Of a DNA stretch of 64,000 nt, positions 9,787-56,855 are shown piece after piece (positions within the stretch are counted from its first letter, which is position 1; every line of letters starts with the position of its first letter). A program made the position numbers and the translations under genes. The notes below the pieces were generated by a model. That model made no database searches. It was not told the origin of the DNA and was given only the letters and a program-made list of their open reading frames with translations. This DNA comes from an uncultured Bacilli bacterium (GTDB taxonomy: Bacteria; Bacillota_I; Bacilli_A; RF39; UBA660). Location: the NCBI GenBank assembly GCA_934101645.1, contig CAKORX010000003.1, forward strand, positions 5,179-69,178. Direction: 5' to 3'.

Positions 9787-10032
9787 TTGAATATAAAATA
9801 TGCTTTAGAAAATTTTTTGTATGATAAAGATTTTTTTATATCAATTTATAGTGGCCATGTATATGTTTATAATTATGATGAAATTGAAATATTAACAAAT
9901 GACAAAATAGTTTTAAAAATAAATAATTTTAAAGTAAATGTAATAGGTAGTAATTTAAAAATTGAAAAGTTAAATAAAAAAGAACTTCTTATTGAGGGAT
10001 TTATTAATAATATAGGAAAAATTTATGACTGA
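9787..10032 (+). CDS. yqfC: YabP/YqfC-family sporulation protein
   Basis: 81 aa. ...IYSGHVYVYNYDEIEIL...LKI...ELLIEGFI... fits the YabP/YqfC pattern. It is followed by yqfD as in Bacillus. TTG start. Confidence 0.65.
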   Translation: MNIKYALENFLYDKDFFISIYSGHVYVYNYDEIEILTNDKIVLKINNFKVNVIGSNLKIEKLNKKELLIEGFINNIGKIYD

Positions 10033-11158: not shown

Positions 11159-11159
11159 T

Positions 11160-11693: not shown

Positions 11694-11745
11694 TTTGATT
11701 TGTTAAGTATTATTGGATATAATAGTTGCTAGTGGGGTATTCTAG

Positions 11746-12192
11746 ATGAATAAATTTGAAATAATAGATTTAGTTAAATATAAAAAATATGGTATTGTTA
11801 AAAAAGTTTTAAAAAGAACTTTGAAAATGGAAAAAGTTAACAATGCATTTTTTTCAGTTGTTTTAGTAGATGAAAAGAAAATTCAAGAAATAAATAAAGA
11901 ATATCGTAATATTGATAGAGTAACCGATGTTATATCATTTGCTTTTGAAGATAACGATAAACGTGAGTATAACGACATAAGAGTTTTAGGTGAAATATAT
12001 ATATGCATTCCAAGAATGAAAGAGCAAGCAAAAATGTATGGTCATAATGAAACTAGAGAGATAGCTTTTTTAGCTGTTCATGGGCTTTTACATTTACTTG
12101 GATATGATCATACAAAATCAAAAGAAGATGAAGAAATAATGTTTGGAAAACAGGAGTTGGTATTAAATGGATTTAATAAAACGCAAAGGTGA
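11746..12192 (+). CDS. ybeY: rRNA maturation endoribonuclease YbeY
   Basis: HGLLHLLGYDH metal-binding motif, 148 aa. Confidence 0.85.
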   Translation: MNKFEIIDLVKYKKYGIVKKVLKRTLKMEKVNNAFFSVVLVDEKKIQEINKEYRNIDRVTDVISFAFEDNDKREYNDIRVLGEIYICIPRMKEQAKMYGHNETREIAFLAVHGLLHLLGYDHTKSKEDEEIMFGKQELVLNGFNKTQR

Positions 12193-12565
12193 AAAAGTCG
12201 GACCAGTTAAAGATGTATTACATAAATTTAAATATTCTTTTCAAGGATTTATTTATTGTTATACTCATGAAACTAGTTTTATATTTGAAACAATTGGTAT
12301 AGTGGCAATTATTGTATGTGGTATTATTTTTAAAATTACTTTTATGCAATGGATTTTTGCTTTAATAAGTATGCTTCTTATAATGGAAATTGAATTTTTA
12401 AATACCGCTATAGAGGCTACTGTAGATTTAGTAACTCAAGAATATCATCCACTTGCAAAAGTAGCAAAAGATTGTGGCTCAGCAGCAACTTGTATGGCAA
12501 CATTTATGGCAATAATAGTAAATGCAATAATATTTTTGCCATATATAATAAGTTTATTTAAATAG
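12167..12565 (+). CDS. dgkA: diacylglycerol / undecaprenol kinase
   Basis: 132 aa three-TM protein with EIEFLNTAIEATVDL resembling DgkA. Conserved position between ybeY and era. Confidence 0.75.
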   Translation: MDLIKRKGEKVGPVKDVLHKFKYSFQGFIYCYTHETSFIFETIGIVAIIVCGIIFKITFMQWIFALISMLLIMEIEFLNTAIEATVDLVTQEYHPLAKVAKDCGSAATCMATFMAIIVNAIIFLPYIISLFK

Positions 12566-12572
12566 GTGAGTT

Positions 12573-13457
12573 ATGAAAAGTGGATTTGTAAGTTTAATAG
12601 GAAGACCAAATGTAGGAAAATCAACTTTAATTAATTCCTTAATTACTCAAAAAATTGCTATTACATCTGATAAAGCAGGTACAACTAGAAATGTTATTCA
12701 AGGTATATATAATGAAAAAGATTATCAAATTGTGTTTGTGGATACTCCAGGTATTGCTAAACCAATTAATAGACTAGGTAAAATATTAAATAAAAAAGCA
12801 AAAGAAATGACTGAAGATGTTGATGCAATACTTTTTGTTATAGATGGTAAAAAAGGTATTGGTCCTGGAGATAAATATATTTTAAATATTTTAAAAAATG
12901 TTGAAATTCCCGTTATTTTGGTTATTAATAAAATAGATCAAATATCTGATGAAATACTTCTTTATACAATAAATGAGTATAAAGACTTATATCCTTTTTC
13001 AGACATTGTTCCGGTTTCTGCTATGACAAATGATAATACAGATAGACTTATTGAAGTAATAAAAAAGTATTTATCTGATGAAGTTAAATATTATGACGAT
13101 GATATGATTACCTCAAATTCAATGAGCTTTATGGTATCTGAAATTGTTAGAGAAAAACTTTTAAATGATACAATCGAAGAAGTTCCTCATAGTATTGCTT
13201 GCAACTGTGTTGGGTACCATGAAAAAAAAGATGTAGTAAATATTTTAGTAGATATTATAGTAGATAGAGATTCTATTAAAAAAATAGTTATTGGAAAAAA
13301 TGGTAGTAGACTTAAAAAAGTTGGTATCGAAGCCCGTGAAGAAATCGAAAAAATGGTTGGCAAAAAAGTTTATATAGAGCTTTATGTTAAAACTATAAAA
13401 AATTGGAAAGATAAAGAAAAGTATTTATTAGAATTAGGTTATTTAAATAATGAATAA
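12573..13457 (+). CDS. era: GTPase Era
   Basis: GRPNVGKSTL P-loop, DTPG, NKID and a C-terminal KH domain. 294 aa. Confidence 0.9.
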   Translation: MKSGFVSLIGRPNVGKSTLINSLITQKIAITSDKAGTTRNVIQGIYNEKDYQIVFVDTPGIAKPINRLGKILNKKAKEMTEDVDAILFVIDGKKGIGPGDKYILNILKNVEIPVILVINKIDQISDEILLYTINEYKDLYPFSDIVPVSAMTNDNTDRLIEVIKKYLSDEVKYYDDDMITSNSMSFMVSEIVREKLLNDTIEEVPHSIACNCVGYHEKKDVVNILVDIIVDRDSIKKIVIGKNGSRLKKVGIEAREEIEKMVGKKVYIELYVKTIKNWKDKEKYLLELGYLNNE

Positions 13458-18901: not shown

Positions 18902-19696
18902 ATGAAAACGAGAATTATTAGTGCCATTATAGCAATTGCTATAGCTGTGCCGTTTGTTTATTTTGGAAAAGAATTATTTATGTTTGGAGTAGGGCTTATT
19001 TGTTTATGGTCGTATAAGGAAATTATGGATTTAAAAAAAACACATAAAAAAATTCCAAACGTACCGAAATTTTTAGGATTATTTGGACTACTTATGATAG
19101 TATTTTCAAATACTAGTTATTCCCTTTATTATAGTGGTGTATCATATATTTATTTAGCGGTATTATGCTTTACATTAATTATACCAACACTATTTTATGA
19201 TGATGATAAATATACAATAAAAGATGCATTTCATTTAGTTGGTTTACTTTTATTTGTTGGACTTGGTTTTAATAGTATTATTTTAGTGAGAAATATTGAT
19301 ATTAAATTATTTTTGTATTTGGTATCTATTCCGGTAATTACTGACTCGTTTGCCCTTTTCGTGGGTAAAAGATTTGGTAAAAATAAAATGTGTCCAAATA
19401 TTAGCCCTAAGAAAACTTGGGAAGGTATGATTGGTGGAACTATTTTTGGAACAATCATTCCACTTATTATCTATTATTTATTTTTTAAAGAATTTAATTT
19501 TATTATGGTTTTAATAACATTTATTTTAACAATAATGGATCAAATTGGTGATCTAATATTTAGTAAGTTAAAAAGAGAAAATGATATAAAAGATTTTTCA
19601 AATATTATGCCTGGACATGGTGGTGCCCTAGATAGACTTGATAGTACGCTTGTTATATTTATTACATATGTAGCACTATCATTAATATTATTATAA
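18902..19696 (+). CDS. cdsA: phosphatidate cytidylyltransferase
   Basis: Polytopic membrane protein with the C-terminal KRxxxxKDxxxxxPGHGGxxDRxDS signature (KRENDIKDFSNIMPGHGGALDRLDS). Confidence 0.85.
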   Translation: MKTRIISAIIAIAIAVPFVYFGKELFMFGVGLICLWSYKEIMDLKKTHKKIPNVPKFLGLFGLLMIVFSNTSYSLYYSGVSYIYLAVLCFTLIIPTLFYDDDKYTIKDAFHLVGLLLFVGLGFNSIILVRNIDIKLFLYLVSIPVITDSFALFVGKRFGKNKMCPNISPKKTWEGMIGGTIFGTIIPLIIYYLFFKEFNFIMVLITFILTIMDQIGDLIFSKLKRENDIKDFSNIMPGHGGALDRLDSTLVIFITYVALSLILL

Positions 19697-19709
19697 AGGA
19701 GGAAGAAAA

Positions 19710-20783
19710 ATGTTTGCAAGTATAGGATTATTTATAGTAAAAATATTATTACTTTTATTTATTTTAGGAATAATAATTTTAGTTCATGAGTTTGGTCATT
19801 TTATATGGGCTAAGAAATTCGGCGTTTATATTTATGAATTTTCTATAGGAATGGGTCCAGTTATTCATACTCATAAAGGAAAAAAGGACAAAATAAATTA
19901 TAATATTCGTCTTATACCAATTGGTGGATTTGTATCAATGGCTGGCGAGGTATATGATAATGATGAAAAAATACCTAAATCTAAATTAATGTGTAATAAA
20001 AAATGGTACCAAAGGCTTATTATTTTAGTCGCTGGTGTTGTAAATAATTTTATTTTAGCAATAGTAATACTTTTTGCCTATACTTTAATTTGGGGTGGTG
20101 GAGCTATAACACCTAAGGTTAGTGAGACTATAGCTGATAAACCTGCCGCAGCTGCGGGAATTAAAGAAGGCGATGTAATTACAAGCATTAATGGCTATCA
20201 TGTTTCATCTTGGGATAAAGCTCAAATAATTTTATATTATAAAAATAATAAAGACTATTATACATTTGAAGTAAAACATTCTGATGGAAATAAAGAAACT
20301 ATTAAAGTAAAACCAGAAATTATTAAAGATGAAGAAACTGGCACAGAAAGTAAATTATTTGGTATAAAAATTAAAGAAGCTGATACATCAAATGTATTTA
20401 AGGCATTTATTTATAGTATTCAAAAATTTGCAAGTATTATAAGTTCAATGGTTTATACAATATGGGGATTAATTGCTGGTAAAATAGGCCTTTCTGCATT
20501 ATCAGGTCCTGTTGGAATTTATGAAGTAGTGGGTCAAACTATTAATTATGGAATCAATTATTTCTTATATATTTTGGCATTTTTATCAATAAATGTAGGA
20601 TTTATAAATATATTACCATTCCCAGCATTTGATGGAGGACATGTATTTTTCTTAATTGTAGAGAAAATTAAAGGAAAACCTGTAAATGCTAAATTTGAAA
20701 GTACATGCCATTTAATTGGCTTTATATTAATATTTCTACTTATGATAATTGTTACAATAAACGATATAATTAAGTTATTTTAA
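19710..20783 (+). CDS. rseP: RIP zinc metalloprotease RseP (site-2 protease)
   Basis: HEFGHF zinc motif in the first TM, a central PDZ domain (GIKEGDVITSING) and LDGG motif. 357 aa. Confidence 0.85.
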   Translation: MFASIGLFIVKILLLLFILGIIILVHEFGHFIWAKKFGVYIYEFSIGMGPVIHTHKGKKDKINYNIRLIPIGGFVSMAGEVYDNDEKIPKSKLMCNKKWYQRLIILVAGVVNNFILAIVILFAYTLIWGGGAITPKVSETIADKPAAAAGIKEGDVITSINGYHVSSWDKAQIILYYKNNKDYYTFEVKHSDGNKETIKVKPEIIKDEETGTESKLFGIKIKEADTSNVFKAFIYSIQKFASIISSMVYTIWGLIAGKIGLSALSGPVGIYEVVGQTINYGINYFLYILAFLSINVGFINILPFPAFDGGHVFFLIVEKIKGKPVNAKFESTCHLIGFILIFLLMIIVTINDIIKLF

Positions 20784-25321: not shown

Positions 25322-26302
25322 TTATGAACCAAAAGCTTTCAAATTATTAATTTTATCATTAAATTCTAAATAATAGTTTTTATCAAAATTATGTTCTTCG
25401 ATTTCAACTTTTCCAGAATCAACAGCCATTAAAGCGGTGGTATCGACTAAAAAATATTTATGATATAAATAGTCTTTACCATCATCACTAACTGGATCAT
25501 CCCAAGTTAGGTCTAGGTGAAGCCACTTATCATTTAAATAAACTGCATTCCAAATATGCCCATTTGATTTATAACCGACACTTTCTTTTGTAGTAGCAAT
25601 TTTATAGTTTTTAATATTAAACTTTGTTAAGAATATTGCCATTAAATCTGTGTATCCATTACATGTAGCCATGTGATCAAATAAAGGACCATATGCAATG
25701 TAAGATAAATATTTACTATCACCATTTTTATTTCTTTCTACGTCATATTTTGTGGTATTAATAATATAGTCATGAATAGTTTTAATTTTTTCGTATTCAT
25801 TCATTTCGGTAGTGATTTTTTCATTTATAATTTTATTAACTTCATTATCAATTTTTTCAATTTGATCTTTTGTATAAAGGTAGTTTATCTCAATAGTAAT
25901 TTCTCCGGATTCAAGCATGCTTGTTTTCATATTAGTAAAACTATTATAAGGATGAACATAGTTATTAACATGAGTTAAAGTAATATCATCTTTACTTATT
26001 TGTTCTATATCCTTTATACAATCGGTATATTCATTAGGACAATAAAAAGTAAAAGTATCCCAGCCATTATTAATTGTAGTATAAATAATGTTTAGTAAAT
26101 CGTTATAAGAATATGGTACAAATTCATTTACATTATGAACAAATAAGAAATTATCAGTTTTTGTATATTCATTTTTTTCTTTAATAAGAAGTTTTGGGGT
26201 TTCAGTAATTTTATTTGCAATAAGGTTACTTATAAAATCTGATTTATACGAAATAATAAGTAACAAGATAACACATATAATAGTTATAATAAATTTTTTC
26301 AT
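25322..26302 (-). CDS. transglutaminase-like cysteine-protease-domain protein, membrane-anchored/secreted
   Basis: N-terminal TM, then a C-terminal ...CNGYTDLMAIFL...GHIWNAVYL...LHLDLTWDD Cys-His-Asp transglutaminase-like core. Confidence 0.7.
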   Translation of the reverse strand: MKKFIITIICVILLLIISYKSDFISNLIANKITETPKLLIKEKNEYTKTDNFLFVHNVNEFVPYSYNDLLNIIYTTINNGWDTFTFYCPNEYTDCIKDIEQISKDDITLTHVNNYVHPYNSFTNMKTSMLESGEITIEINYLYTKDQIEKIDNEVNKIINEKITTEMNEYEKIKTIHDYIINTTKYDVERNKNGDSKYLSYIAYGPLFDHMATCNGYTDLMAIFLTKFNIKNYKIATTKESVGYKSNGHIWNAVYLNDKWLHLDLTWDDPVSDDGKDYLYHKYFLVDTTALMAVDSGKVEIEEHNFDKNYYLEFNDKINNLKAFGS

Positions 26303-26352
26303 ATTTATATTGTACTAAAAAATAGGTAATAAAAAAAGTAGTTTTTTAATAA

Positions 26353-26616
26353 CTACTTCATGTTTTTAATTTTTTGTGATAATCTTGATTTTTGTCTATC
26401 AGCTGTATTAGATTTAATTAATCCTTTACTTAAAGCTCCATCGCATTCTTTTTGAAATTTTTTAAATAACTCAGAAGCTTTTTCTTTATCGTTAGCTGCA
26501 ATTAATTTTTCTATATCTTTAATTAAGTTCTTAACTTGTGCTTTAGCTTCATGATTATTATCAGTTTTTTTAGCGATAACTTTAATTGCTTTTTTTGAAC
26601 TTTTAATATTTGCCAT
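26353..26616 (-). CDS. rpsT: 30S ribosomal protein S20
   Basis: MANIKSSKKAIKV...ADRQKSRLSQKIK is typical of bS20. 87 aa. Confidence 0.9.
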   Translation of the reverse strand: MANIKSSKKAIKVIAKKTDNNHEAKAQVKNLIKDIEKLIAANDKEKASELFKKFQKECDGALSKGLIKSNTADRQKSRLSQKIKNMK

Positions 26617-26765
26617 CTTTTCTTCCTTCCTTTTTAGTACGTAACTATTTTATCAAAACTTTTCTAGTTTAGCAAGTATTTTCAAGCATGCTAAGCAAAA
26701 ACCTTAAAAAACTTATTTAAAGATATTTTTTTCGACAAAAAAATTAGTATTTATTTGTTAATTTT

Positions 26766-27632
26766 ATGATGGTGATAAAAATGGGACATTTTAAAAGCAT
26801 GAGTAAAAAAAGAAAGATTCAAAGAAAAATAATATTTTTTTTACTAGAAATAATATCTGCTTTAATAATTGTCAAAGTTATTAAGAAAAATTATAAATTG
26901 AATGAAGATAAATTAGTTTATTTGACTTATAATTATTTAGGAAAAATCTCTAAAAAAGTTGAACAAGTAAATAATGAAGTTATTGAAAATACAACACCTA
27001 TATTTAAAAATGAAAGGGATCCCACAGTATACATTTACAATACTCATCAATCTGAAAAATATAAATACAGCAAAGTTAACAATTATAATTTAGATTATAC
27101 CGTTATGTTTGGCAGTCAAATATTAAAAGATTATTTAAATGAATATAATATTAATGCGTATGTAGAAGAAAATTTAATTAGTAAAGTTTTAAATGAAAAT
27201 AATCTTGTATATAAAGATAGCTATGTAGCAAGTAGAATACTTATGGAAAATGCTAAAAAAAGTAATCCCACTTTAAAGTATTTTATTGATTTACATAGAG
27301 ATTCTTCATCATACGAAAGAACTACATGTTTAATTAATGATGATTCATATGCAAAAGTATTGTTCGTTTTAGGACTAGAAAATCCAAACTATGAAAAAAA
27401 TAAGGAAATGATTAATGCGTTAAATAATAAAATTATTTCCTATAACAGTTGCTTATCAAGAGGAATAATGGAAAAAGAAGGTCCTTATTCAAATGGCGTA
27501 TATAATCAGGACTTTGATAAAAATACAATTCTAATTGAAGTCGGAGGACAATATAATGATATTAAACAGGTAGATAATACCTTAAAAGTTTTAGCAAAAG
27601 TTTTATATGAATATATTATGGAGGATTCATGA
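26766..27632 (+). CDS. spoIIP: stage II sporulation protein P family
   Basis: ...IYNTHQSEKY...HRDSSS... motifs of SpoIIP. Conserved position between rpsT and lepA. Confidence 0.8.
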   Translation: MMVIKMGHFKSMSKKRKIQRKIIFFLLEIISALIIVKVIKKNYKLNEDKLVYLTYNYLGKISKKVEQVNNEVIENTTPIFKNERDPTVYIYNTHQSEKYKYSKVNNYNLDYTVMFGSQILKDYLNEYNINAYVEENLISKVLNENNLVYKDSYVASRILMENAKKSNPTLKYFIDLHRDSSSYERTTCLINDDSYAKVLFVLGLENPNYEKNKEMINALNNKIISYNSCLSRGIMEKEGPYSNGVYNQDFDKNTILIEVGGQYNDIKQVDNTLKVLAKVLYEYIMEDS

Positions 27633-33633: not shown

Positions 33634-34728
33634 ATGAAAGAAAAAATTGTATCAATTTTATTTGTATCTATGTTGTTAGTTTTAGGCTTAGGAAGTATTA
33701 TTGCCAAAGATAATGATATTTCATATAAAGAAAGAAGAACTTTAACAAAAATGCCTTCATTAAATTTAAAAAGTATTTTTTCTGGTGATAATTATTTTGA
33801 AAATTTAACAAATTATTTTAATGATCAATTTATTTTCAGAGATAATTTTAAGTCTTTGAAAGGAATTACAACAAGCAAAATATTTGTTATGAAAGAAAAT
33901 AATGGTATATATGAAAAAGACAATTATTTATTTCAAATGGATACAAATGTAAATAAAAAGTCAATCGATAATTTATTAAATAAAATAAAATATATTGATA
34001 ATACTTATTTAGATAATCAAAACAAATATTTTGTAATGATTCCAGATAAAAATTATTATTTAGATGATGAAAATATTCCTAAAATAGGGTATAATACTAT
34101 TATAGATAGTCTAAAAAATGGGCTACCTAATGATGTTAAATGGATTGACATAACAAAATCTTTAACTTTAGATTCATATTATAGAACTGATATTCATTTT
34201 AAAGAAAATAAACTAAGTGATGTAGTAAAAACTTTATCTAATAATATGAATTTTGAAAGTAGTAATACTAATTATACTTTAAAAAAATATTATCCATTTT
34301 ATGGTGCACTTTATGGAAAGGTTGCTAGCAATATTAAAGCAGATGAAATTGAATATTTAACAAATGATGTTATTAATAATGCTAGCGTTTATAATTATGA
34401 AAAAAATAGAGTAGAAAAAGTATATATGGAAGATTACTTAAAAAATGTTGATAGTTATGATGTATTTTTATCAGGAGCAACACCACTTTTAATTATTGAA
34501 AATGAATTTAATGATTCAGGAAAAGAACTTGTAATGTTTAGAGATTCTTTTGCTAGTTCATTAACACCTTTATTAATTGAAAGTTATTCTAAAATAGTAA
34601 TGGTTGATTTAAGATATGTTAGTAGTAAATATCTAGAAAAAATTAATGAATTTTCTGTTAAAGAAGATGCAGATGTTATGTTTATTTATAGTACAGTTAT
34701 TATTAATAATAGTTTTTCTTTAAAGTAG
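33634..34728 (+). CDS. DHHW/AlgJ-like extracytoplasmic protein (putative O-acyltransfer partner of the MBOAT protein)
   Basis: N-terminal signal anchor. YYRTDIHF motif in the position of the DHHW signature. Genes of this type are usually adjacent to MBOAT genes. Confidence 0.55.
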   Translation: MKEKIVSILFVSMLLVLGLGSIIAKDNDISYKERRTLTKMPSLNLKSIFSGDNYFENLTNYFNDQFIFRDNFKSLKGITTSKIFVMKENNGIYEKDNYLFQMDTNVNKKSIDNLLNKIKYIDNTYLDNQNKYFVMIPDKNYYLDDENIPKIGYNTIIDSLKNGLPNDVKWIDITKSLTLDSYYRTDIHFKENKLSDVVKTLSNNMNFESSNTNYTLKKYYPFYGALYGKVASNIKADEIEYLTNDVINNASVYNYEKNRVEKVYMEDYLKNVDSYDVFLSGATPLLIIENEFNDSGKELVMFRDSFASSLTPLLIESYSKIVMVDLRYVSSKYLEKINEFSVKEDADVMFIYSTVIINNSFSLK

Positions 34729-38018: not shown

Positions 38019-38675
38019 ATGAAAATACTTTTAATTGAAGATGAACAATCACTTGTTAAAATTATAAAATAAACATTAGAAAATTCTAAATTTGAAGTAG
38101 ATTTTTCCTTAGATGGACTTATAGGGTATGAAAAAGCATTAAGCAATGAATACGATTTGATAATTTTAGATGTAATGCTTCCAAATAAAAACGGATTTGA
38201 TATTTTGAGTGATTTAAGAAAAAATAATATTACTAGTAAAATTATTATGCTTACTGCACTATCTAGTTTGGAAAATAAAATTGATGGGTTTAACAAAGGC
38301 ACAGATGATTATTTAACAAAGCCTTTCCATATTGAAGAGCTTATTGTGAGAATTAATAAACAACTTAATTTAATTAATTATAAAATTTCTTATGAGGATA
38401 TTTATTTAGATAAATCTAATAAAAAATTAATAAATGAAAAGACTAATGAAAGTGTTGACTTAGTTTGTAAAGAATATAAACTTTTAGAATATTTAATAAA
38501 TAATCAAATCATGATACTTTCAAAAGAGCAGATATACGATAAAGTGTGGGGTATTGAAAATGAAAGTGAATCAAATAATATTGAAGCATATATGTCATTT
38601 TTAAGAAAAAAACTAAAATCAATAGCTTCAAGTGTAACTATAAAGTCCTATCAAAATTTAGGCTATAAATTGGAA
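38019..38675 (+). pseudogene. OmpR-family response regulator with in-frame TAA at codon 18
   Basis: MKILLIEDEQSLVKIIK-TAA(38070-38072)-TLENSKFEVDFSLDGLIGYEKAL..YDLIILDVMLP...LTKPF... gives a receiver domain. A winged helix ending ...IKSYQNLGYKLE follows. The whole reading is in one frame. Confidence 0.7.
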
Positions 38676-38741
38676 GCTCAAAATGAGAAAGTTAAAAAGA
38701 AAATAGAAAATTCTTTGAAAGATATAAAAGAAAATAATTTA

Positions 38742-39278
38742 AGAACTCAAAATAATGACCGTAAAGATGAATTCTTTGAAAAGATAGTTTCAGATACAAC
38801 TTCATTCTATTTCAAAGGAAAAAAATATGATTGGACATTTTATTTAGATGTGTTTAATAATGAAATTGTTGGATTAGATGTAAGAAAAACAATGTACGGA
38901 AATGGTATATTAAATCATAAAAAAACTGTAGAAAATATGCTAAATAACAAAATAAAAAGAGGATATAAAGACCTAGATACAATAGTTCACATAGATCAAG
39001 GCATTATTTATTCCTCAGTATCATTTAAAAATATATTTAATTCCTATAACATAACCAGATCTATGTCTAGAGCTGGTATACCAACAGATAATCCAGTTAT
39101 TGAATCCAAAAATGGATGGTTAAAGAAAGAAATGTATATTGATTTTGACGTAAATAATTATAACACAGTTAAAGAATTTATTGATGATATTATTTGGGAT
39201 AATAATAACTATAGATCCAGTTATGCTTTAAATTATAAAAACCCAATTGAATATAGAACTCAACTGGGCTTTCAATAA
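38742..39278 (+). mobile_element. IS3/IS150-family transposase OrfB remnant (DDE integrase core only), fused in-frame to the response regulator
   Basis: ...VSDTTSFYFKGKKYDWTFYLDVFNNEIVG...HIDQGIIYSS...SMSRAGIPTDNPVIESKNGWLKKEM...YRTQ aligns with the catalytic half of IS3-family OrfB. There is no OrfA, no OrfB N-terminus and no stop codon between it and the regulator. Confidence 0.7.
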
Positions 39279-44689: not shown

Positions 44690-45922
44690 ATGAAAAAATA
44701 CTTAAACTTAATTATTTTTATAATATCAATAGTTATATATTTTCTTGTTATGTTTATTTTTAATATAAATTTAGGAACTGGTAAAAAAGAACTTGAAAAT
44801 ATTTTAGTTTTAGTATTTCCAGTTTTAGCAATGTTATTTTATTTAATTTATTATGAAAAAGATAAAAAGATTATTTTATATTATTTAACAATGTATTTTG
44901 TAATGCTAATAGGTTTTGTATTTTTTTCAAGTAGAGCAAACTATCTTACAACAAATAAAATTTTGTTACGAAACTATAATATTATTCCTTTTATTGGAAT
45001 AGTAAAATTATTTGAAACTTCAAAACGTTTTGCGATTTATAATATTTTAGGTAATTTTTTAATGCTTTCACCTTTAGCAATATTACTTCCAATAATTTGT
45101 AAAAAATTTAAAAATATTAAATATTTTAGTTCATTTATATTAATTTTAACTTTAACAATTGAAAGTGTTCAATATTTTACTAATATTGGTTCATTTGATA
45201 TTGATGATATTATTTTAAATATAAGTGGAGCAATAATTACTTTTTTAATAGTTTATAATACAAGACTAAAAAAAATTATATATGATTTATTTTTGGAAAA
45301 GAAAAGTGAAAATATAATGTTTAAATTTCTTTATTATGTTTTCATATCTTTATCATTTATAGTCTTTCTTTATTATGCATTCTTAATATTAAATAATATT
45401 TATGAAAATAAAGTTAATTATAGTAATTTAAAATGTGTAGAAGAAAATAAAACTTATCTTACTAGCATTAATAATTATAGATATTATTCATTATGTAAAT
45501 ATAGTGGCAATGTCAAAAAGGGCAAAAATAACTATTCATTAAAAGATAGTATATTAAATAATTTTTTTAATGAAAAAGATTTAAAGAAACTAAATATTGT
45601 AAAAGAGAAAATAGTAACGGATGTAAGGTTAATTAGTGATACTAAGATAAATGAAATTTATTTAAATGAAAATACGTATTATTTAGTTAATATGAAGGAT
45701 ATAATTTATACAATTGATGGTACACAAATAAGCTTAAATCAAGCAGCAAAAGATTATGATTTTAATCCTATATTATCACTTGTTAAAATTAGTTATTTTG
45801 CAAAAAATAAAATAATGAGTGTATATGAAGGAGAATATTTTAATGTAATAAATTGCTCTGATAATAAATATTTTGTTTTAGATAAAAACTTTAAATATGA
45901 TTATAATTTTTGTAGTAAATAA
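44690..45922 (+). CDS. VanZ-family membrane protein with C-terminal extracellular domain
   Basis: VanZ motifs (NIIPFIGIV...NILGNFLMLSPLAILLP...DIDDIILNISGAIITFLIV), then a TM and about 190 aa of extracytoplasmic domain with 6 Cys. Confidence 0.6.
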   Translation: MKKYLNLIIFIISIVIYFLVMFIFNINLGTGKKELENILVLVFPVLAMLFYLIYYEKDKKIILYYLTMYFVMLIGFVFFSSRANYLTTNKILLRNYNIIPFIGIVKLFETSKRFAIYNILGNFLMLSPLAILLPIICKKFKNIKYFSSFILILTLTIESVQYFTNIGSFDIDDIILNISGAIITFLIVYNTRLKKIIYDLFLEKKSENIMFKFLYYVFISLSFIVFLYYAFLILNNIYENKVNYSNLKCVEENKTYLTSINNYRYYSLCKYSGNVKKGKNNYSLKDSILNNFFNEKDLKKLNIVKEKIVTDVRLISDTKINEIYLNENTYYLVNMKDIIYTIDGTQISLNQAAKDYDFNPILSLVKISYFAKNKIMSVYEGEYFNVINCSDNKYFVLDKNFKYDYNFCSK

Positions 45923-46058
45923 TATTGTTTTATTTACTTTTTTTGTCGATTTTTATTTGCTTTAACTAATAAGCAGTTAAAACTTTTGATATCTTTTGTC
46001 GAAGTTGTTTAAATTATAAAAAAATTGAACTATATTATTTGTAGCAAAGGAAAATAAT

Positions 46059-46391
46059 ATGTTAAAAATGAATTTAGAATTCAATAAAGGTATTTTATTT
46101 GTTAGATTAGATGGAATGCTTAATAGAGCTACAACATATAAAGTTAATAATTATCTAGTGCCAGTTATATTAAAACATAAAATTAAATATTTAGTTTATA
46201 ATTTATATGCTTTAGAAGATATTGATGAAACTGGAATTGATGCTTTATTAAATACAAAATTTGCTATAAAAAGTAATAAAGGAGTAATATATTTTTGTGA
46301 AGTAAGTGATTATTTAAATAAAAAATTACATAAATTACACATAAAAAAGATTGATAATGAATTAGTGGCATCAAAATTAATTGAGGTTTAG
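46059..46391 (+). CDS. spoIIAA: anti-sigma-F factor antagonist (STAS domain), SpoIIAA-like
   Basis: 110 aa. ...ILFVRLDGML...IKYLVYNLYALEDIDETGIDALLN... aligns with the SpoIIAA phosphorylation segment (DLSFMDSSGLG), but with Thr at the phospho-Ser position. Confidence 0.7.
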   Translation: MLKMNLEFNKGILFVRLDGMLNRATTYKVNNYLVPVILKHKIKYLVYNLYALEDIDETGIDALLNTKFAIKSNKGVIYFCEVSDYLNKKLHKLHIKKIDNELVASKLIEV

Positions 46392-46394
46392 AAA

Positions 46395-47033
46395 ATGACT
46401 AAAGAACAAATCATTAACGAAAATGCTGGCTTAATTTATGAAATAGCAAAGAAGTTTTATGGTTATCCGAAAGAAGATTTATTTCAAGCAGGTGTTCTAG
46501 GTTTATTAAAAGCCTTTAAAAATTATGATCCTAGTTACGGAGCAAAGTTTTCAAGTTTTGCATATACTTCAATTTATGGAGAAATGTATTTACTAGTTAA
46601 TAATCGAAGTATGAAAATAAATAGAGAAGCTTTAAATTTATATAAGTTAATCGAACAAACTAGATTTTCTTTGGCTCAAAAGCTTGGCCATGTTCCAAAT
46701 TATAATGAAGTTGCAAATTTCTTGGAAATGGACCCCGTTAAAATTTATGATGCTGTAATAGCAGGTCAAGCTGTGATGAGTTTAGATAGTGCTGAAAATG
46801 CACCATTATATGATATTATTAAAAAAGAGGAAAGAACTTCTTTAGATGATAAATTGTTCTTAGATGAAGGTTTAAGTGTACTTTCCGAAGATGAAAAAAA
46901 TATTATTAAATCGAGATATTTTGATGATTTAACTCAAAGTGAAGTTGCAAGAAAACTTAGAATGACTCAAGTAATGGTTTCAAGATATGAGAAAAAAGGT
47001 ATTCAAAAAATGAGAGAGTATATGACTTTATAA
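46395..47033 (+). CDS. sigF: sporulation sigma factor, SigF-like (sigma-70 regions 2-4)
   Basis: ...DLFQAGVLGLLKAFKNYDP..G.KFSSFAYTSIYGEM... (region 2) and ...TQSEVARKLRMTQVMVSRYEKKGIQKM (region 4.2). It lies between spoIIAA and spoVAC as in Bacillus. At 212 aa it is about 40 aa shorter at the N-terminus than B. subtilis SigF. Confidence 0.7.
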   Translation: MTKEQIINENAGLIYEIAKKFYGYPKEDLFQAGVLGLLKAFKNYDPSYGAKFSSFAYTSIYGEMYLLVNNRSMKINREALNLYKLIEQTRFSLAQKLGHVPNYNEVANFLEMDPVKIYDAVIAGQAVMSLDSAENAPLYDIIKKEERTSLDDKLFLDEGLSVLSEDEKNIIKSRYFDDLTQSEVARKLRMTQVMVSRYEKKGIQKMREYMTL

Positions 47034-47079
47034 GTATAAAAATCACCATATTTAAAATAATAATAATGGTGATTTTATT

Positions 47080-47517
47080 TTGGACAAAGAAGAATATAAA
47101 AAACTTGTAAAGGAAAAATATCCTAAAGAAAAAAGAGCAAAAAATGCACTTATAGCTTTTTTAGTTGGAGGATTAATAGGCTTAGGTGGTCAAATTTTAA
47201 CAAGATTACTTGTTTTAACTTTTGGTATTTCAAAAATGATGAGTTATAGTGTTGTTTGTTTAGTAATAATTTTTCTTGCAGCTTTATTTACGGGACTTGG
47301 ATTTTTTGATGACTGGGTAATTAAAACTAAATGTGGTTTAATTATTCCTACGACAGGATTTGCTCATAGTATAACAAGTTGTGCCTTAGAATATAAAAAA
47401 GATGGAATGATTACGGGACTTGGTGCAAATTTTTTTAAACTAGCGGGTTCTGTAATATTATATGGTATAATTTCTGCATTTTTCTTATGTATAATAAAGG
47501 TGGTATTTTATGGGTAA
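47080..47517 (+). CDS. spoVAC: stage V sporulation protein AC
   Basis: ...KNALIAFLVGGLIGLGGQIL... is a typical SpoVAC membrane protein. TTG start. Confidence 0.8.
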   Translation: MDKEEYKKLVKEKYPKEKRAKNALIAFLVGGLIGLGGQILTRLLVLTFGISKMMSYSVVCLVIIFLAALFTGLGFFDDWVIKTKCGLIIPTTGFAHSITSCALEYKKDGMITGLGANFFKLAGSVILYGIISAFFLCIIKVVFYG

Positions 47518-48484
47518 TATTAAATTTAATAATGTTTATATTAAAGATTATTTTACTTTAGTAGGTCCCAAAGAAAAAGATAGTAAGATAACAAATTATG
47601 ATTTAGGTTTTAAAGATAGTTATTTTGGTGAAAAAACCTTTGAACTTGCGGAAATTAAAATGCAAAAAGTAGTTATTCAAAATCTACTTAATAAAAATAA
47701 TTTAAGTGAAAATAGTATAAATTATGTAGTAGGTGGAGATTTAATTAATCAGATTGCTATAACAAGTTATACTATGATGGATTATTTAATTCCTTTTGTG
47801 GGAGTTTATGCAGCTTGTGCTACTTTTCCATTATCAGTAATATTAGGAGCAAATCTAATAGAGAGTAAAAATGCTAAAAATATTATCACTCTTACTTCCT
47901 CGCACAATTTAACTGCCGAAAGACAATATCGATATCCTGTTGAATATGGTTCGCCGAAACCTAAAACATCAACATGTACTTTAACTTCGAGTGTTGGTGC
48001 GCTTCTATCTAACGATAAAACAAATATCAAAATTTCTGGTGGACTAATCGGCAAAGTTATAAACTTAGGAATCAATGATGTAAATCATATGGGAGCTATA
48101 ATGGCTCCAGCCTGTGCTGATACAATACATACATTTTTAGAAAATAGTAAAGAAAATGTGAAAGATTATGACTTAATTTTAACAGGAGATTTAGGAAGTG
48201 TAGGTTTAGAAATTTTAAAGGAATATTATGAAAGGGTTTATGGTAGTCGTTTAACAAAAATAATGGATGCTGGTAGTGAGATATTTTTAGCAAGTGATAT
48301 GTTTTCAGGTGGTTCTGGACCTTGCTGTTTACCTCTTATATTTTTTACTAAAATACTTAAGAATAAACGTTATAAAAAAATTCTTCTTGTAGGAAGTGGT
48401 TCTTTGCATACAACAGTTTTAGTAAATCAACATCAAACAGTTCCTGCAATAAGCCATTTAGTTAAAATTGAGGTGATATCATGA
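47510..48484 (+). CDS. spoVAD: stage V sporulation protein AD
   Basis: 324 aa, thiolase/KAS-like fold with an active-site Cys region (...YAACATF...). Conserved order AC-AD-AEb. Confidence 0.8.
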   Translation: MGNIKFNNVYIKDYFTLVGPKEKDSKITNYDLGFKDSYFGEKTFELAEIKMQKVVIQNLLNKNNLSENSINYVVGGDLINQIAITSYTMMDYLIPFVGVYAACATFPLSVILGANLIESKNAKNIITLTSSHNLTAERQYRYPVEYGSPKPKTSTCTLTSSVGALLSNDKTNIKISGGLIGKVINLGINDVNHMGAIMAPACADTIHTFLENSKENVKDYDLILTGDLGSVGLEILKEYYERVYGSRLTKIMDAGSEIFLASDMFSGGSGPCCLPLIFFTKILKNKRYKKILLVGSGSLHTTVLVNQHQTVPAISHLVKIEVIS

Positions 48485-48831
48485 TTTATTTAAATTCATT
48501 TTTATTTGCTGGCTTTATTTGCATGTTAGGACAAATAATACTTGATAATTCCAAACTTACTCCGGGACATATAACTTCAATATTTACTGTAGTTGGCGTT
48601 CTTCTATCATTTTTTGAAATCTATCCATCATTAGTGGAAAAATGCGGAATTGGAGCAACCTCATTAATAATTAATTTTGGAAATATGCTTTTTTTAGGGG
48701 GAATGGAAGGTTTCGAAGAAAGTGGGCTAATCGGAATTTTTTCGGGACTTCTTTGTAAAAGTTCATTAGCAATAACTGGAGCAATAGTATTTGCTTTTAT
48801 AATTACAATATTTTGTAAACCAAAAAATTAA
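48481..48831 (+). CDS. spoVAEB: stage V sporulation protein AEb
   Basis: 116 aa, 3 TM, ...GHITSIFTVVG...GATSLIINFGNMLFLGG.... Confidence 0.8.
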   Translation: MIYLNSFLFAGFICMLGQIILDNSKLTPGHITSIFTVVGVLLSFFEIYPSLVEKCGIGATSLIINFGNMLFLGGMEGFEESGLIGIFSGLLCKSSLAITGAIVFAFIITIFCKPKN

Positions 48832-48910: not shown

Positions 48911-49900
48911 ATGGAAGAAAATAACGATTTTAAAATTGAGTTACCAAAAGTAAATGAAGAAAATAATAATGCATCTGTATCAGAACCAGTTGTGCAAATG
49001 CCTACTATAGAACCTTCTGTACAGCCGGCAATATCTAATGAGCCTACAAGTGAAGTAACTATGGAGCCAGTAGTTGAAACTCCAGTTGTTACAAGTCCAG
49101 AGGTTTCAATGGAAAGTACTCCAGAAACTTATAGTGAACCAGTATCACCGGTTACTATGATGCCAGAAGTTGAAGTTCCAACTGAAGTGCAAACTCCAGT
49201 AGTAGAACAAACTCCAACATCTGTAGAACCTGCGGTACAAATGCCTAGTGTGGAACCAGCTGTGGAGCCAGTAGTTGAAACTCCAGTTGTTACAAGTCCA
49301 GAGATTTCAATGGAAAGCACTCCAGAAACTTATAGTGAACCAGTATCACCGGTTACTATGATGCCAGAAGTTGAAGTTCCATCAGAAGTGCAAACTCCTG
49401 TAGTAGAACAAACTCCAACATCTGTAGAACCAACTATAGATGTAGCTCCTGCAACTTCAGAAATTTCTATGCCTGAAGTTGAAACTCCAGTAAATAGTGA
49501 AGTTACTTCAGCACCAGTAGAACCAGCGCAAACACAAGTAAGTGCACCTGAACAAACTACTTATGAAGCTGTTCAAACTCCAAATGTGGACGTAGCACAA
49601 GAACAACCTTCTGAAATGCAGTCATCTGTTTCAGAACCTGCTACTGAAGTACCTGAAACTCCAGTTTCAACAATTGCGGAAACACCTGCACAACCTGAAC
49701 TAGCACAAAATGTTAATTTTAATCAAACTGCTCCTGTGATGGAAAGTGCTCCTGTTATGGAAGGACAAACAGAAAATAATAATAAAACTGAGTTACCAAA
49801 AGTTAGTAAGCCAGTTAAAATTATTTGTACTGTCGCAGTAATTGTTGTAGCGTTATTGATTATTTACTTTCTTGTAAGAAACTTTTTCTTAGTTAAATAA
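48911..49900 (+). CDS. P/T/E/V-rich low-complexity surface protein with C-terminal TM anchor and internal 67-aa tandem duplication
   Basis: 329 aa. Two near-identical 67-aa repeats (PVVETPVVTSPE[VI]SMESTPETYSEPVSPVTMMPEVEVP[TS]EVQTPVVEQTPTSVEP). C-terminal hydrophobic helix IICTVAVIVVALLIIYFLV. Confidence 0.6.
   Translation: MEENNDFKIELPKVNEENNNASVSEPVVQMPTIEPSVQPAISNEPTSEVTMEPVVETPVVTSPEVSMESTPETYSEPVSPVTMMPEVEVPTEVQTPVVEQTPTSVEPAVQMPSVEPAVEPVVETPVVTSPEISMESTPETYSEPVSPVTMMPEVEVPSEVQTPVVEQTPTSVEPTIDVAPATSEISMPEVETPVNSEVTSAPVEPAQTQVSAPEQTTYEAVQTPNVDVAQEQPSEMQSSVSEPATEVPETPVSTIAETPAQPELAQNVNFNQTAPVMESAPVMEGQTENNNKTELPKVSKPVKIICTVAVIVVALLIIYFLVRNFFLVK
49064..49431 (+). repeat. 201-bp direct tandem duplication (2 copies, >95% identical)
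   Basis: GAGCCAGTAGTTGAAACTCCAGTTGTTACAAGTCCAGAG... at 49064 recurs at 49265 (period 201 bp) with a handful of substitutions. Confidence 0.9.
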
Positions 49901-53696: not shown

Positions 53697-56600
53697 ATGG
53701 GTATATTAGATATTTTAAAAGATAATTTGGTTATATCAAGGATAAGTAGAAAATCAAATTTAGAAATAGAGCAATTAGTTAATTTAACTGATAATCAACT
53801 AAAAAAATTAATGAGCAATAAAGAGATTTATTTGATTGATTTAGGAAAAATATCTTCATATGATTTGCTAAAAAAACTTATTGAACTTTATAAATTTTCA
53901 AAGGATGATTATAAAAGTGTCAGTTTACTTTTAAGTATGGCTGATGAAAAAATGTATAAAATTTTAGAAACAAGCAATGTTTCAAATATTAAAAATAACT
54001 TGTGCGAAGAAAGCATTAAAAAATTTATATCAGAGCCTTCATATACAATAGATATTAATTTATTTTCTGAAGAATTTATAAAGGAACACGATGATATTTT
54101 TCTAGTTAATACGCTTCCGGAAGATATCAGAAAAAAATATTATGAAAAGAAGATTACTGAAAAAGATTTGTTAGATAATATTGAAGTATTGTGTAAGGTA
54201 AAATATCAAAATATAATTTTAGATAACGTAAATTATAAAGATGATAATTCTAAAAATTTTATTTTAAAACTAGGATTAGATGGTTTAGAAAAAATTACTA
54301 GCAATTTAGGAGCAAATTTTTATCGTATTTATAACGATCAAAACAAAATGGAAGAAATGTGTAAATTCCTAGAGCAAAAAAATCCGAATGATTATTATAT
54401 AGGTGTTGTAAATTATTTATATACTGATGAAGAGTTTTTAAGTGCTTTAGGTATTCAGCAATTTAATAATGAACTGAATTTTTATGGTCAATATTATCTT
54501 GAAAAAATAAATAAAAATAATATTAATAAAATAGATTTAACAAATTATTTTAATAAAGTTTTTTCTGATTATCAAAGAGAAAGTAGTTTTTATAATTTTA
54601 TGAAAAATATGATAACTATTTTATCAAGAAATGAAACTATAAATAGTACTGAAGAATTATTTGAAAAAGTGGCAGTAGCTACAGCTAAAGAAAAAGGAGA
54701 TAATTCACAAGAATTTACTAGTGAATTCATAAAAACTCATCAGCAATATTTTTTGCCAAATGATGCTCCAGATACACTTAAAGAAAAATTTTATAATAAA
54801 TCTCTAACATATAAAGATGTATTAGATAATCTTGCATATTTTTCTAATACGAATATATCATTAGCTTTTTTTGATGAAACAGATAATCGATGTGGTTTAT
54901 TTGATAATAATCTTTTTCTAAAGATGCTTCAGATTTGTGATGGTAATTTGAAAAACTTAAATTGCACTTTCTTTGAAAATATTTTATCTCGACCAGATTC
55001 CAAAATTAATTTTATATCATCTTATGATGAATTTTTATCAATATTTGAAAAGTATTATATGAGTAATGGTATACCAATCAAAGATTTTGAGATTTTAAAA
55101 AAGATTGGTTTTAATAAAAGTTATTTAAACGAAATCGAAGAAAATATTAAAAATTATAATCTACAAAAAGATAACATCAAGTGTGATCTTCGTCTTTTTA
55201 CTAATAATATTATGAAAAAATTTGATATTAATATTATAAAAGCACTTATGACTTATTACCATAGTGGAGCTGTTTCTTTATTAATAAATTATAGCAATGA
55301 TGATGTAATTGTAAATAAAATTAATACTTTGCTAGCACTATTAAGTAAAAGCGATAATAATTTTATTAATGGTAAAAATATAAATTATATTATTCTTTCA
55401 TTTGACAAATGTAGAAGTCTTTTTGATAGTATTATAAAAAATAATACTGTTTTAAATGAAGTACAAATAAAAAACTTAAATGATATTTTAGCTAATAGAA
55501 ATAAATATAATATAGAAAATATTGAGCAGTTAACAAATTACAGTACATATAAGAAAAAAATATTAAATGAAAAACTTGAAAGTAGTAATTTGACCGATGT
55601 ACAATCTGCGATTACTGAATGTTTGTTTTCAATCGACAGAGAATCAATTATTGATTTAAATTCTGTTTATGGTATTTTTAAAGATAAAATGTATCTAAAA
55701 AAAATACAGCCATATTTACCTGTTGATATTGCTGCTGCATTAGAAATAATAAAAGAGGTTTATAATAACTCTGATATTAATAATTTAAAAGCAATATTTG
55801 ATAATTGTATGGAGTTAGGAAATGTTGGTATTAATGCTGTACAAATTAAAACAGCTCTTCGAAATGCATATGAAAAACTTTATATTAGTGAATTATTTAA
55901 AGGTGAAGGAAATAGGGAATACTATATAAATGGGGTTAATAGTGATATATGTACTCATAATGTAAATGGTGAAAAAATTTCATCAGAAAATACTATTAAA
56001 GTAGTTGAACTTAATGACAAGCCATTTAAATTAATAGTACATCATATATTTGTTGGTTCACCAGATCCTTTGTTTAAAGATATTCCTAGTAGAATAATTA
56101 AAAATCCTGAAATTTGGAATACTAAAGAGGGAGCAACTACATTATCTACTACCATAATTTCAAATTCTTGTATTAAAACATTTGGTGTAAATCAACCAGG
56201 GTCCCATATATATTATGGATTTAATGAATTACCATTTGATGTTTTAAGAGGTACTTTTCCAGCAGATGCGGGTACTTTACATGGAGGAGGCCAACTTGAG
56301 GCATTAAGTGGTGCCTACCAAATAAATACACTAGATTATTTAATTAATGTTACAACTGCTCATTCACCTTATAATGAAATTGTATTAATGCGAAGAAGTC
56401 CTATTAAAAATAAATTTGATGGTAGAATTCAACCTAATTGTATTGTTACTTTTGATGATAACATTGATGAATATACAAAATTAGCGGCTCAATATTTTAA
56501 TGTTCCAATTTATAAAATTAATTATAATAAGTATTGGGAAATTAATAGGCAAAACATTGATAAATATTTAAATGGAAAAATAGAAAAATTTGATAATGAT

Positions 56601-56855
56601 GATATAGAAATGATTTTTTCTACTGATTTTGGAAGTTTAAATAGAAATGTAAACAAAGTAGAAATGTGTATTCAACTATTAAAAAAAGCACTAAATGAAA
56701 ATCTAATAAATAATGAACAATATTATGATAGGGTGCAACATATTTTAGATTATGTTGAGGAGAATGGTATAATAATACAACCAGATGATTTAATCAAACT
56801 TAATAGCATTTTAAGTAATAGAATTGAGGTGAATGAAAATGAACTTACAAAATGA
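53697..56855 (+). CDS. 1052-aa orphan protein with internal repeats and an unassigned C-terminal globular domain
   Basis: Long uninterrupted ORF. Repeat units SEEFIKEHDDIFLVNTLPEDIRKKYYEKKITEKDLLDN (aa ~124-166) and SEFIKTHQQYFLPNDAPDTLKEKFYNKSLTYKDVLDN (aa ~342-382). The C-terminal ~270 aa has different composition (HHIFVGSPDP...STTIISNS...HGGGQLEALSGAY...). Confidence 0.55.
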   Translation: MGILDILKDNLVISRISRKSNLEIEQLVNLTDNQLKKLMSNKEIYLIDLGKISSYDLLKKLIELYKFSKDDYKSVSLLLSMADEKMYKILETSNVSNIKNNLCEESIKKFISEPSYTIDINLFSEEFIKEHDDIFLVNTLPEDIRKKYYEKKITEKDLLDNIEVLCKVKYQNIILDNVNYKDDNSKNFILKLGLDGLEKITSNLGANFYRIYNDQNKMEEMCKFLEQKNPNDYYIGVVNYLYTDEEFLSALGIQQFNNELNFYGQYYLEKINKNNINKIDLTNYFNKVFSDYQRESSFYNFMKNMITILSRNETINSTEELFEKVAVATAKEKGDNSQEFTSEFIKTHQQYFLPNDAPDTLKEKFYNKSLTYKDVLDNLAYFSNTNISLAFFDETDNRCGLFDNNLFLKMLQICDGNLKNLNCTFFENILSRPDSKINFISSYDEFLSIFEKYYMSNGIPIKDFEILKKIGFNKSYLNEIEENIKNYNLQKDNIKCDLRLFTNNIMKKFDINIIKALMTYYHSGAVSLLINYSNDDVIVNKINTLLALLSKSDNNFINGKNINYIILSFDKCRSLFDSIIKNNTVLNEVQIKNLNDILANRNKYNIENIEQLTNYSTYKKKILNEKLESSNLTDVQSAITECLFSIDRESIIDLNSVYGIFKDKMYLKKIQPYLPVDIAAALEIIKEVYNNSDINNLKAIFDNCMELGNVGINAVQIKTALRNAYEKLYISELFKGEGNREYYINGVNSDICTHNVNGEKISSENTIKVVELNDKPFKLIVHHIFVGSPDPLFKDIPSRIIKNPEIWNTKEGATTLSTTIISNSCIKTFGVNQPGSHIYYGFNELPFDVLRGTFPADAGTLHGGGQLEALSGAYQINTLDYLINVTTAHSPYNEIVLMRRSPIKNKFDGRIQPNCIVTFDDNIDEYTKLAAQYFNVPIYKINYNKYWEINRQNIDKYLNGKIEKFDNDDIEMIFSTDFGSLNRNVNKVEMCIQLLKKALNENLINNEQYYDRVQHILDYVEENGIIIQPDDLIKLNSILSNRIEVNENELTK

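Follow-up and report, generated by a model that had tools for sequence, protein, structure and literature searches.

The 64-kb stretch of DNA analysed here (64,000 nucleotides of contig CAKORX010000003.1 from an uncultured Bacilli bacterium, called the window below) contains a gene for a SpoIIAA-like STAS protein which is followed, after a spacer of only 3 nt, by a gene for a SigF-like sigma factor, without the spoIIAB gene that lies between the two in the Bacillus order dacF-spoIIAA-spoIIAB-sigF-spoVA. In the textbook account, gene expression is made forespore-specific by the SpoIIE-SpoIIAA-SpoIIAB-sigmaF switch. The absence of spoIIAB from this locus is a trait of the lineage and not an artefact, and the residue at which SpoIIAA is phosphorylated is degenerate in the STAS family. 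The reading favoured here, with moderate confidence, is that of a two-gene sigma-F operon left after the loss of spoIIAB, in which the STAS protein acts independently of phosphorylation. The features that define the locus are the following:

46059-46391, plus strand: SpoIIAA-like STAS gene, 110 aa (PF01740 in Pfam, E=2e-12)
46230-46232, plus strand: Thr58 codon of the STAS gene, ACT, falling on the second Ser of DSSG, i.e. the Ser58 phospho-acceptor (gap-free HMMER alignment)
46383-46394, plus strand: ribosome-binding site of the sigma gene, GAGG inside the last STAS codons, then TAG and the 3-nt spacer (from the sequence)
46395-47033, plus strand: SigF-like sigma gene, 212 aa (Pfam sigma-70 regions 2, 3 and 4)
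47080-47517, plus strand: spoVAC
47510-48484, plus strand: spoVAD
48481-48831, plus strand: spoVAEb (the three spoVA genes assigned by PF03862, PF07451, TIGR02838, TIGR02845 and TIGR02839)

The STAS gene ends in the stop codon TAG (46389-46391), which is followed by the spacer AAA and by the start codon ATG of the sigma gene at 46395, with both open reading frames (ORFs) in one frame. As judged from its sequence, this boundary is a translational-coupling junction at the normal place of spoIIAB, and the room available there is insufficient for a spoIIAB gene (~146 aa). The original prediction had described spoIIAA followed by sigF with 3 nt between them and no spoIIAB, which is confirmed from the ORF coordinates and the Pfam matches, and had placed spoVAC, spoVAD and spoVAEb downstream as in Bacillus, which Pfam and NCBIfam bear out; this block (47080-48831) serves as the downstream synteny anchor of the locus. 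The other sporulation genes of the window are yabP-yqfD and spoIIP (26766-27632). The guanine-plus-cytosine (GC) content of the window is 25%, and TGA serves as a stop codon.

Contigs with an identical sigma sequence occur in 88 blocks of the collection, and all 23 of the contigs that were read share the gene order, with an identical 3-nt junction on these 23 contigs from independent samples of the species. A scan of the GTDB species representatives returned six loci, all from metagenome-assembled genomes (MAGs) named “uncultured Bacilli bacterium” and originating from the guts of Hadza people and of rabbits and from one other source (isolate E20); the sigma factor of one of these loci is 98% identical to that of the window, and those of the other five are 52-54% identical. 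Three further lineages (L014-L016; L with a number denotes a related locus) were reached through protein matches, which brings the total to nine species-level lineages, and the junction from the STAS gene to the sigma gene measures between -4 and +24 nt in 9/9 of them (gut Bacilli MAGs, 24-29% GC). The order in the relatives reads dacF-like (Peptidase_S11) - (LytR) - STAS - sigma - spoVAC/AD/AEb, with the Peptidase_S11 gene, a dacF-like D-Ala-D-Ala carboxypeptidase, upstream in L007, L009, L014 and L015, and with spoVAC/AD/AEb downstream in the window and in seven other lineages. In L016 the flanks differ and the pair no longer lies beside spoVA, the STAS-sigma pair itself being intact. Both genes are under purifying selection, with ratios of nonsynonymous to synonymous substitution rates (dN/dS) of 0.02-0.42 at dS ~1 (0.17-0.40 for the STAS gene and 0.02-0.42 for the sigma gene). 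The local deletion within conserved synteny that had been proposed for this locus is supported by the dacF-like-STAS-sigma-spoVA order of the relatives and by a conserved Spo0A box (0A box) upstream of the pair. A 321-aa protein entry (P0114) that would represent a STAS-sigma fusion was rejected as a frameshifted gene call, and the shared frame of the two genes is not conserved (L005, L014 and L016 differ).

By sequence and by fold, the STAS protein is closest to SpoIIAA. It aligns without gaps in HMMER to the SpoIIAA proteins of B. subtilis (1AUZ) and G. stearothermophilus (1TH8), its sequence matches in the PDB are SpoIIAA only, and the best structural match of its AlphaFold 2 (AF2) model, which was built from 69 family members and has a predicted local distance difference test score (pLDDT) of 95, is SpoIIAA in the SpoIIAA-SpoIIAB complex (1THN_B, template-modelling score 0.90). 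On the spoIIAA model TIGR02886 it scores 33.3 bits vs a cutoff of 114.75 and stays below the equivalog level. In the predicted structure, residue 58 caps the helix 57-72.

It is at this residue that the family departs from SpoIIAA. A threonine had been noted at the SpoIIAA phosphorylation position (EDIDETGIDAL in place of DSSG), and the gap-free alignment shows this assignment to be exact. Canonical systems have this serine as their defining conserved residue (PMC8256260), and a conserved phosphorylatable Ser58, as expected of a SpoIIAA, is not found in the STAS family. In a close set of 121 clusters with at least 59% identity, position 58 is Ser in 49, Asp in 20, Ala in 16, Cys in 14 and Thr in 9, and D56, G59, A62 and N65 are invariant. 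In a distant set of 131 full-length members, taken as representatives at 50% identity with 30-59% identity to the query, the position is occupied by S (18), Y (16), K (15), I (12), E (12), D (10), T (8), V (7), N (7), F (5) and others, and D56 and G59 are kept in most members. Ser or Thr is present in 58/121 of the close set (48%) and in 26/131 of the distant set (20%), and variants with Ala58 (L005, L008) and Asp58 (L006, L007, L009) occur in intact operons. These alignments favour regarding Thr58 as one of the states of a degenerate position over regarding it as a meaningful exchange of Ser for Thr. A degenerate position 58 together with purifying selection is the pattern expected if the kinase and the phosphatase are gone and the STAS protein still has a job.

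The 212-aa sigma factor, whose alignment with the related families had been called for, is closest to SigF. On the NCBIfam models it scores 151 bits with SigB/F/G (TIGR02980, cutoff 234) and 138 bits with SigF (TIGR02885, cutoff 321), followed by 90-101 bits with SigG, 89 with SigB and 79 with FliA; its best PDB match is sigmaF (1L0O_C, E=1.5e-27), and its AF2 model shows the sigma2, sigma3 and sigma4 helices. Grouping with FliA, which the original prediction had named as the outcome that would speak against it, is thus not observed, since the SigF model outscores the FliA model (138 vs 79 bits) and the best PDB match is sigmaF. The protein does not have a full-length N-terminus. Its residue 3 aligns with position 34/252 of PRK05572 and with residue 30 of 1L0O chain C, and its residue 1 corresponds to residue 32 of B. 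subtilis SigF, in agreement with the coordinates of the hidden Markov model and of the PDB entry. The figure of ~40 missing N-terminal residues given earlier is therefore to be lowered to ~31; the total length deficit relative to canonical SigF amounts to ~43 aa, the remainder being small internal and C-terminal gaps. Leaving aside truncated or mis-called entries, the homologues listed are 210-219 aa long, and close ones have ~212 aa, which makes the short N-terminus in these homologues as old as the loss of spoIIAB.

The signals for expression of the pair found in the window are the following:

45944-45950, plus strand: 0A-box-like heptamer TGTCGAT, 6/7 to the Spo0A box TGTCGAA (sequence, motif scan)
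45997-46003, plus strand: consensus Spo0A box TGTCGAA, 56-62 nt ahead of the STAS start codon
46008-46036, plus strand: sigma-A-type promoter-like site, TTTAAA, 17-nt spacer, TATATT, with 9/12 consensus matches, abutting the 0A box
46047-46053, plus strand: ribosome-binding site of the STAS gene, AAGGAAA (from the sequence)
47039-47084, plus strand: hairpin with an 11-bp outer stem, then UUUUAUUUU (RNA fold -12.3 kcal/mol, z=-3.2)

All six lineages examined share the 0A-box promoter that precedes the STAS gene. The proximal box lies at -58 to -62 within the same surrounding block cATTTGTCGAAgtTGTTTAAAt in L005 and L008, and it reads TGTCGGA in L006, L007 and L009; the conserved upstream block contains TTTGTCGAA, which abuts TTTAAA-17 nt-TATATT, and the GTTTAAAT and CTATATTA blocks of this promoter-like site are conserved in L005-L009. 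The site at 46008-46036 presumably functions as a promoter. The distal heptamer TGTCGAT (45944-45950) is not conserved in the other lineages and constitutes weaker evidence than the proximal box. The heptamer TGTCGAA is not enriched across the window (5 found vs 2.3 expected), and the argument for the 0A box therefore rests on its positional conservation. The minus strand carries a second exact TGTCGAA (26731-26737) in the interval from rpsT to spoIIP, ~30 nt ahead of the latter gene. The hairpin at 47039-47084, which a simple terminator scan misses because of its long loop, is, as folded, likely to be an intrinsic terminator closing the two-gene operon. By its position, the STAS gene is the first gene of the sigF operon, and the 0A-box promoter, the coupled junction and the terminator together point to a two-gene operon that is probably Spo0A-dependent.

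The missing gene was also sought outside the junction. The Pfam annotation of same-species contigs, which extends from ~2.7 kb of the window to its end and 10 kb beyond its 3' end (~80 kb; the first ~2.7 kb of the window carries no Pfam annotation), contains no HATPase_c/GHKL or PP2C gene, and no GHKL gene lies within ~10 kb of the STAS-sigma pair in any of the nine lineages. A tblastn search with SpoIIAB and RsbW found nothing credible in 348 kb, comprising the window and all related loci. Its sole match, at 34345-34521 (E=0.07-0.1), was rejected as a chance match, lying inside a gene for a 364-aa secreted protein which adjoins an MBOAT gene and which we take to resemble the DltD/DHHW family.

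These observations can be set beside the survey of the RF39 order by Field, Bowerman and Hugenholtz (2024, PMC10868615), in which spoIIAB and spoIIE are reduced or absent, spoIIP, spoIIGA and others are kept, and a “markedly different regulation” is predicted. The window, with spoIIP, yqfD and spoVAD and without an operon spoIIAB, matches this RF39 pattern and is unlike ML615J-28, which is poor in yqfD, or RFN20/CAG-449, which are poor in spoVAD, so that on gene content the lineage probably belongs to the GTDB order RF39. The gene spoIIAA is not among the RF39 losses in that survey (PMC10868615), and if the RF39 STAS proteins are equally divergent, its KEGG Orthology (KO) annotation could still detect divergent members. 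Both spoIIAB and spoIIE are presumably missing from the remainder of the genome as well. It is quite probable that a SpoIIAB-type kinase is absent from these genomes and that, as a consequence, the phosphorylation cycle is gone. Of the two alternatives left by the original prediction, a spoIIAB located elsewhere and a rewired control of SigF, the variable phosphosite and the RF39 survey (PMC10868615) favour the latter.

In the model proposed here, the spoIIA (sigma-F) operon lost spoIIAB through an ancient deletion in an uncultured lineage of gut Bacilli with reduced genomes, and the same deletion may have taken the first ~30 codons of sigF, a single event being proposed because the lineage shows both features throughout. 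The unit left over would consist of a 0A-box promoter, the SpoIIAA-like STAS gene, the tightly coupled gene for a short sigma-F and a terminator. The phosphorylation-driven partner switch between SpoIIE, SpoIIAA and SpoIIAB would no longer operate, which would leave the phospho-acceptor residue free to mutate, and the STAS protein would be kept by selection for a phosphorylation-independent contact made via its conserved D56-x-x-G59 surface. The most likely partner would be sigma-F, for which the STAS protein might act as a stoichiometric holder or anti-sigma factor, or as a chaperone, and the output of sigma-F would then depend mainly on its Spo0A-dependent synthesis. That the STAS protein acts directly on sigma-F is proposed on the grounds of their co-translation at a ratio of roughly 1:1 and of an adjacency that persists even where the flanks are different; this part of the model is tentative and, taken by itself, somewhat unlikely.

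It has to be noted that several points weigh against the model. Ser or Thr still occupies position 58 in about half of the close relatives, the adjacency of the STAS and sigma genes is also the default outcome of deleting the middle gene, and to our knowledge no STAS-sigma complex has been described. The RF39 MAGs are given a 0% sporulation probability by the SpoMAG classifier (PMC12536801). The search for spoIIAB covered 64 kb of this genome and ~10 kb on each side of the gene in each relative, and an absence based on KO assignments could miss a very divergent GHKL protein.

The alternative that survives best takes up this last point and assumes that a SpoIIAB-like anti-sigma factor, probably kinase-dead, is encoded elsewhere in the genome and has the STAS protein as its unphosphorylated antagonist, by analogy with UsfX and RsfA; this is considered quite unlikely. 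In M. tuberculosis, UsfX is an anti-sigmaF factor without kinase activity, and its antagonists are RsfA, which is redox-controlled and not phosphorylated, and RsfB, which sets a precedent both for a STAS antagonist that needs no phosphorylation by its anti-sigma partner and for a SigF-type module that runs without a kinase cycle. Consistent with such an arrangement, the SpoIIAA fold is retained together with the D56/G59 helix-cap motif, which faces SpoIIAB in the known complex, and the UsfX-RsfB complex 8IH8 is among the fold matches of the STAS model. Cys80 (codon 46296-46298) is invariant among the 121 close members and is a Cys in canonical SpoIIAA too, and position 68 is Cys in 71/121 close members (Phe in the window protein), which would permit a redox-type control; by analogy with the proposal made for mycobacterial RsfA, the STAS protein could conceivably be redox-sensitive. 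The searches, confined to the window and its flanks, would also allow for a relocated gene. Against this, there is no GHKL gene within ~10 kb of the pair in the nine lineages or in the 64-kb window, and the bulky or charged residues at position 58 of many members (Y, K, I, E, F) would occupy the contact with the kinase active site. The arrangement also differs from that of M. tuberculosis, where the anti-sigma gene is kept beside sigF and the STAS genes lie elsewhere, whereas here it is the STAS gene that adjoins the sigma gene, and the local search revealed no anti-sigma gene. In the RF39 survey, moreover, it is spoIIAB, not spoIIAA, that is listed as reduced or absent (PMC10868615).

In three rabbit-gut species the sigma gene contains an in-frame TGA (L006:715-717, L007:8754-8756 and L009:3559-3561), which replaces the codon for a conserved region 2.1 Trp that is Trp in the sister lineages. 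The rest of the ORF is intact, no alternative start codon is found before Met64 in these genes, and dN/dS between the species is 0.12 at a dS of 0.65, which indicates that the TGA-bearing sigma factor stayed functional and implies read-through of the UGA. Genetic code 4 was ruled out for L006, L007 and L009, where TGA terminates ORFs at other places and TGG is the codon used for Trp elsewhere; the STAS gene of the three also ends in TGA, in frame with the sigma gene. The sequences suggest that UGA read-through limits sigma-F synthesis in these species. One truncated sigma call occurs among the best 120 matches, and further truncated calls would rank lower. The two-gene model with phosphorylation-independent STAS action can be extended accordingly to a fuller version, in which SpoIIAB and SpoIIE are both lost, the STAS protein binds the shortened sigma-F directly and without phosphorylation as a two-protein module, and the UGA acts as a throttle in the rabbit-gut species; in this complete form, it is regarded as unlikely.

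A further alternative is that the sporulation programme of the lineage is decaying, in which case the STAS-sigma pair would be a remnant or would now serve a regulon that has nothing to do with forespore development. The reduced genome, with phoH, gpr and dxr missing at their usual places, would fit this, as would the L016 pair that no longer lies beside spoVA, the in-frame TGA in the sigma gene of one sub-lineage and the scoring of RF39 MAGs as non-sporulating by SpoMAG (PMC12536801). Decay is nevertheless improbable, given the purifying selection on both genes over a deep divergence, which holds even across the TGA-bearing genes, the intact yabP, yqfD, spoIIP and spoVAC/AD/AEb of the window, the conserved 0A-box promoter and the hundreds of intact homologues found. 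It is very improbable that the sigma factor is of another group-3 type (SigG, SigB or FliA), for which spoIIAB would not be expected at all: all of its NCBIfam scores are under the curated cutoffs and its N-terminus is atypical, but the SigF models lead those of SigG, SigB and FliA by 37-60 bits, the best PDB match is sigmaF, and the gene follows a SpoIIAA-like gene, behind dacF, ahead of spoVA and under a 0A box. That an error of assembly or gene calling hides or removes spoIIAB has a negligible probability, since, even with all sources being MAGs or metagenome contigs and with one frameshifted fusion call (P0114) among them, the identical junction recurs on 23 contigs from independent samples, the same architecture is seen again in the assemblies that different projects made of eight other lineages, and there is no physical room for a ~146-aa gene.

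With the two-gene operon that lost spoIIAB as the preferred reading, the locus can be compared with known systems. It is orthologous to the spoIIA operon of B. subtilis and the Clostridia, the canonical sigma-F partner-switching module, with which it shares a dacF-like gene upstream (in the relatives), spoVA downstream and a 0A-box promoter, its two proteins being closest to SpoIIAA and SigF. It differs from the canonical operon in that spoIIAB is not found between the genes in the nine lineages, Ser58 is not conserved, the sigma factor is ~31 N-terminal residues shorter and the scores of both proteins fall far short of the equivalog cutoffs; it differs from the canonical SpoIIE module in that spoIIE is absent or reduced in the probable order (PMC10868615). 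The canonical spoIIAA-spoIIAB-sigF trio is present in Turicibacter (PMC13492147). For the “STAS domain only proteins” SypA, BtrV, RbaV and HmpV, partners beyond the classical anti-sigma factors, possibly including sigma factors, have been discussed (PMC8256260). Like the STAS protein of the window, these are single-domain proteins; they keep the serine and a cognate kinase and phosphatase, whereas the window family has neither enzyme adjoining and its serine position is degenerate. The loss of spoIIAB as such has one earlier mention: the RF39 survey (PMC10868615) gives it one line in a presence/absence list, without the retained STAS gene, the decay of the phosphosite, the short sigma factor or the promoter. 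In the literature, no description was found of a STAS gene joined to sigF, of the degenerate phosphosite, of the shortened sigma factor or of the promoter.

Around the operon, a gene for a 410-aa VanZ-like membrane protein with a long C-terminal extension (44690-45922, plus strand) lies directly upstream of the STAS gene, occupying the place of the LytR_cpsA_psr and dacF-like genes of the relatives. The product of the gene directly after spoVAEb (48911-49900, plus strand) is rich in Pro, Thr, Glu and Val, has a membrane anchor at its C-terminus and lacks a Pfam match; the gene contains a 201-nt tandem repeat of 1.8 copies that are 97% identical (49062-49431), and strain L001 has a shorter, different gene call (170 aa) in its place. 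Elsewhere in the window, the absence of phoH, gpr and dxr from their usual positions, which had been remarked upon before, holds: there is no phoH after yqfD (10025-13457), where a second VanZ-like membrane protein gene (11160-11693, plus strand) takes its place, no dxr between cdsA and rseP (18902-20783) and no gpr between rpsT and spoIIP (26250-27632), and these gaps at conserved positions are consistent with a reduced genome. An ORF at 53697-56855 (plus strand, 1052 aa) has no Pfam match and is conserved in other strains of the species. In the ORF at 38157-39278 (plus strand), the receiver domain of a response regulator, in truncated form, is joined to a winged-helix output domain and to an rve integrase core; this is probably an insertion sequence element that entered a two-component regulator or became fused to one. 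In other strains of the species, its counterparts (L001:1781-2884, L002:1796-2886 and L003:1688-2885) are split into two ORFs at varying points.

The lineage thus keeps sigma-F, its antagonist and many downstream sporulation genes without a kinase/anti-sigma factor at the locus, which leaves three options: a new route to compartment-specific sigma-F activity, sporulation without tight compartmentalisation, or the use of these genes for other ends. Each of these outcomes bears on the minimal set of sporulation genes and on the evolution of partner-switching modules, and the finding is of interest to specialists in both, being partly anticipated by the gene-content survey (PMC10868615). Classifiers that require spoIIAB would call the lineage non-sporulating, which affects the prediction of spore transmission for abundant uncultured gut bacteria. 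The family represents a natural experiment on what becomes of a STAS antagonist after the loss of its kinase, and direct control of sigma-F by an unphosphorylated STAS protein, if true, would represent a hitherto undescribed type of sigma regulation.

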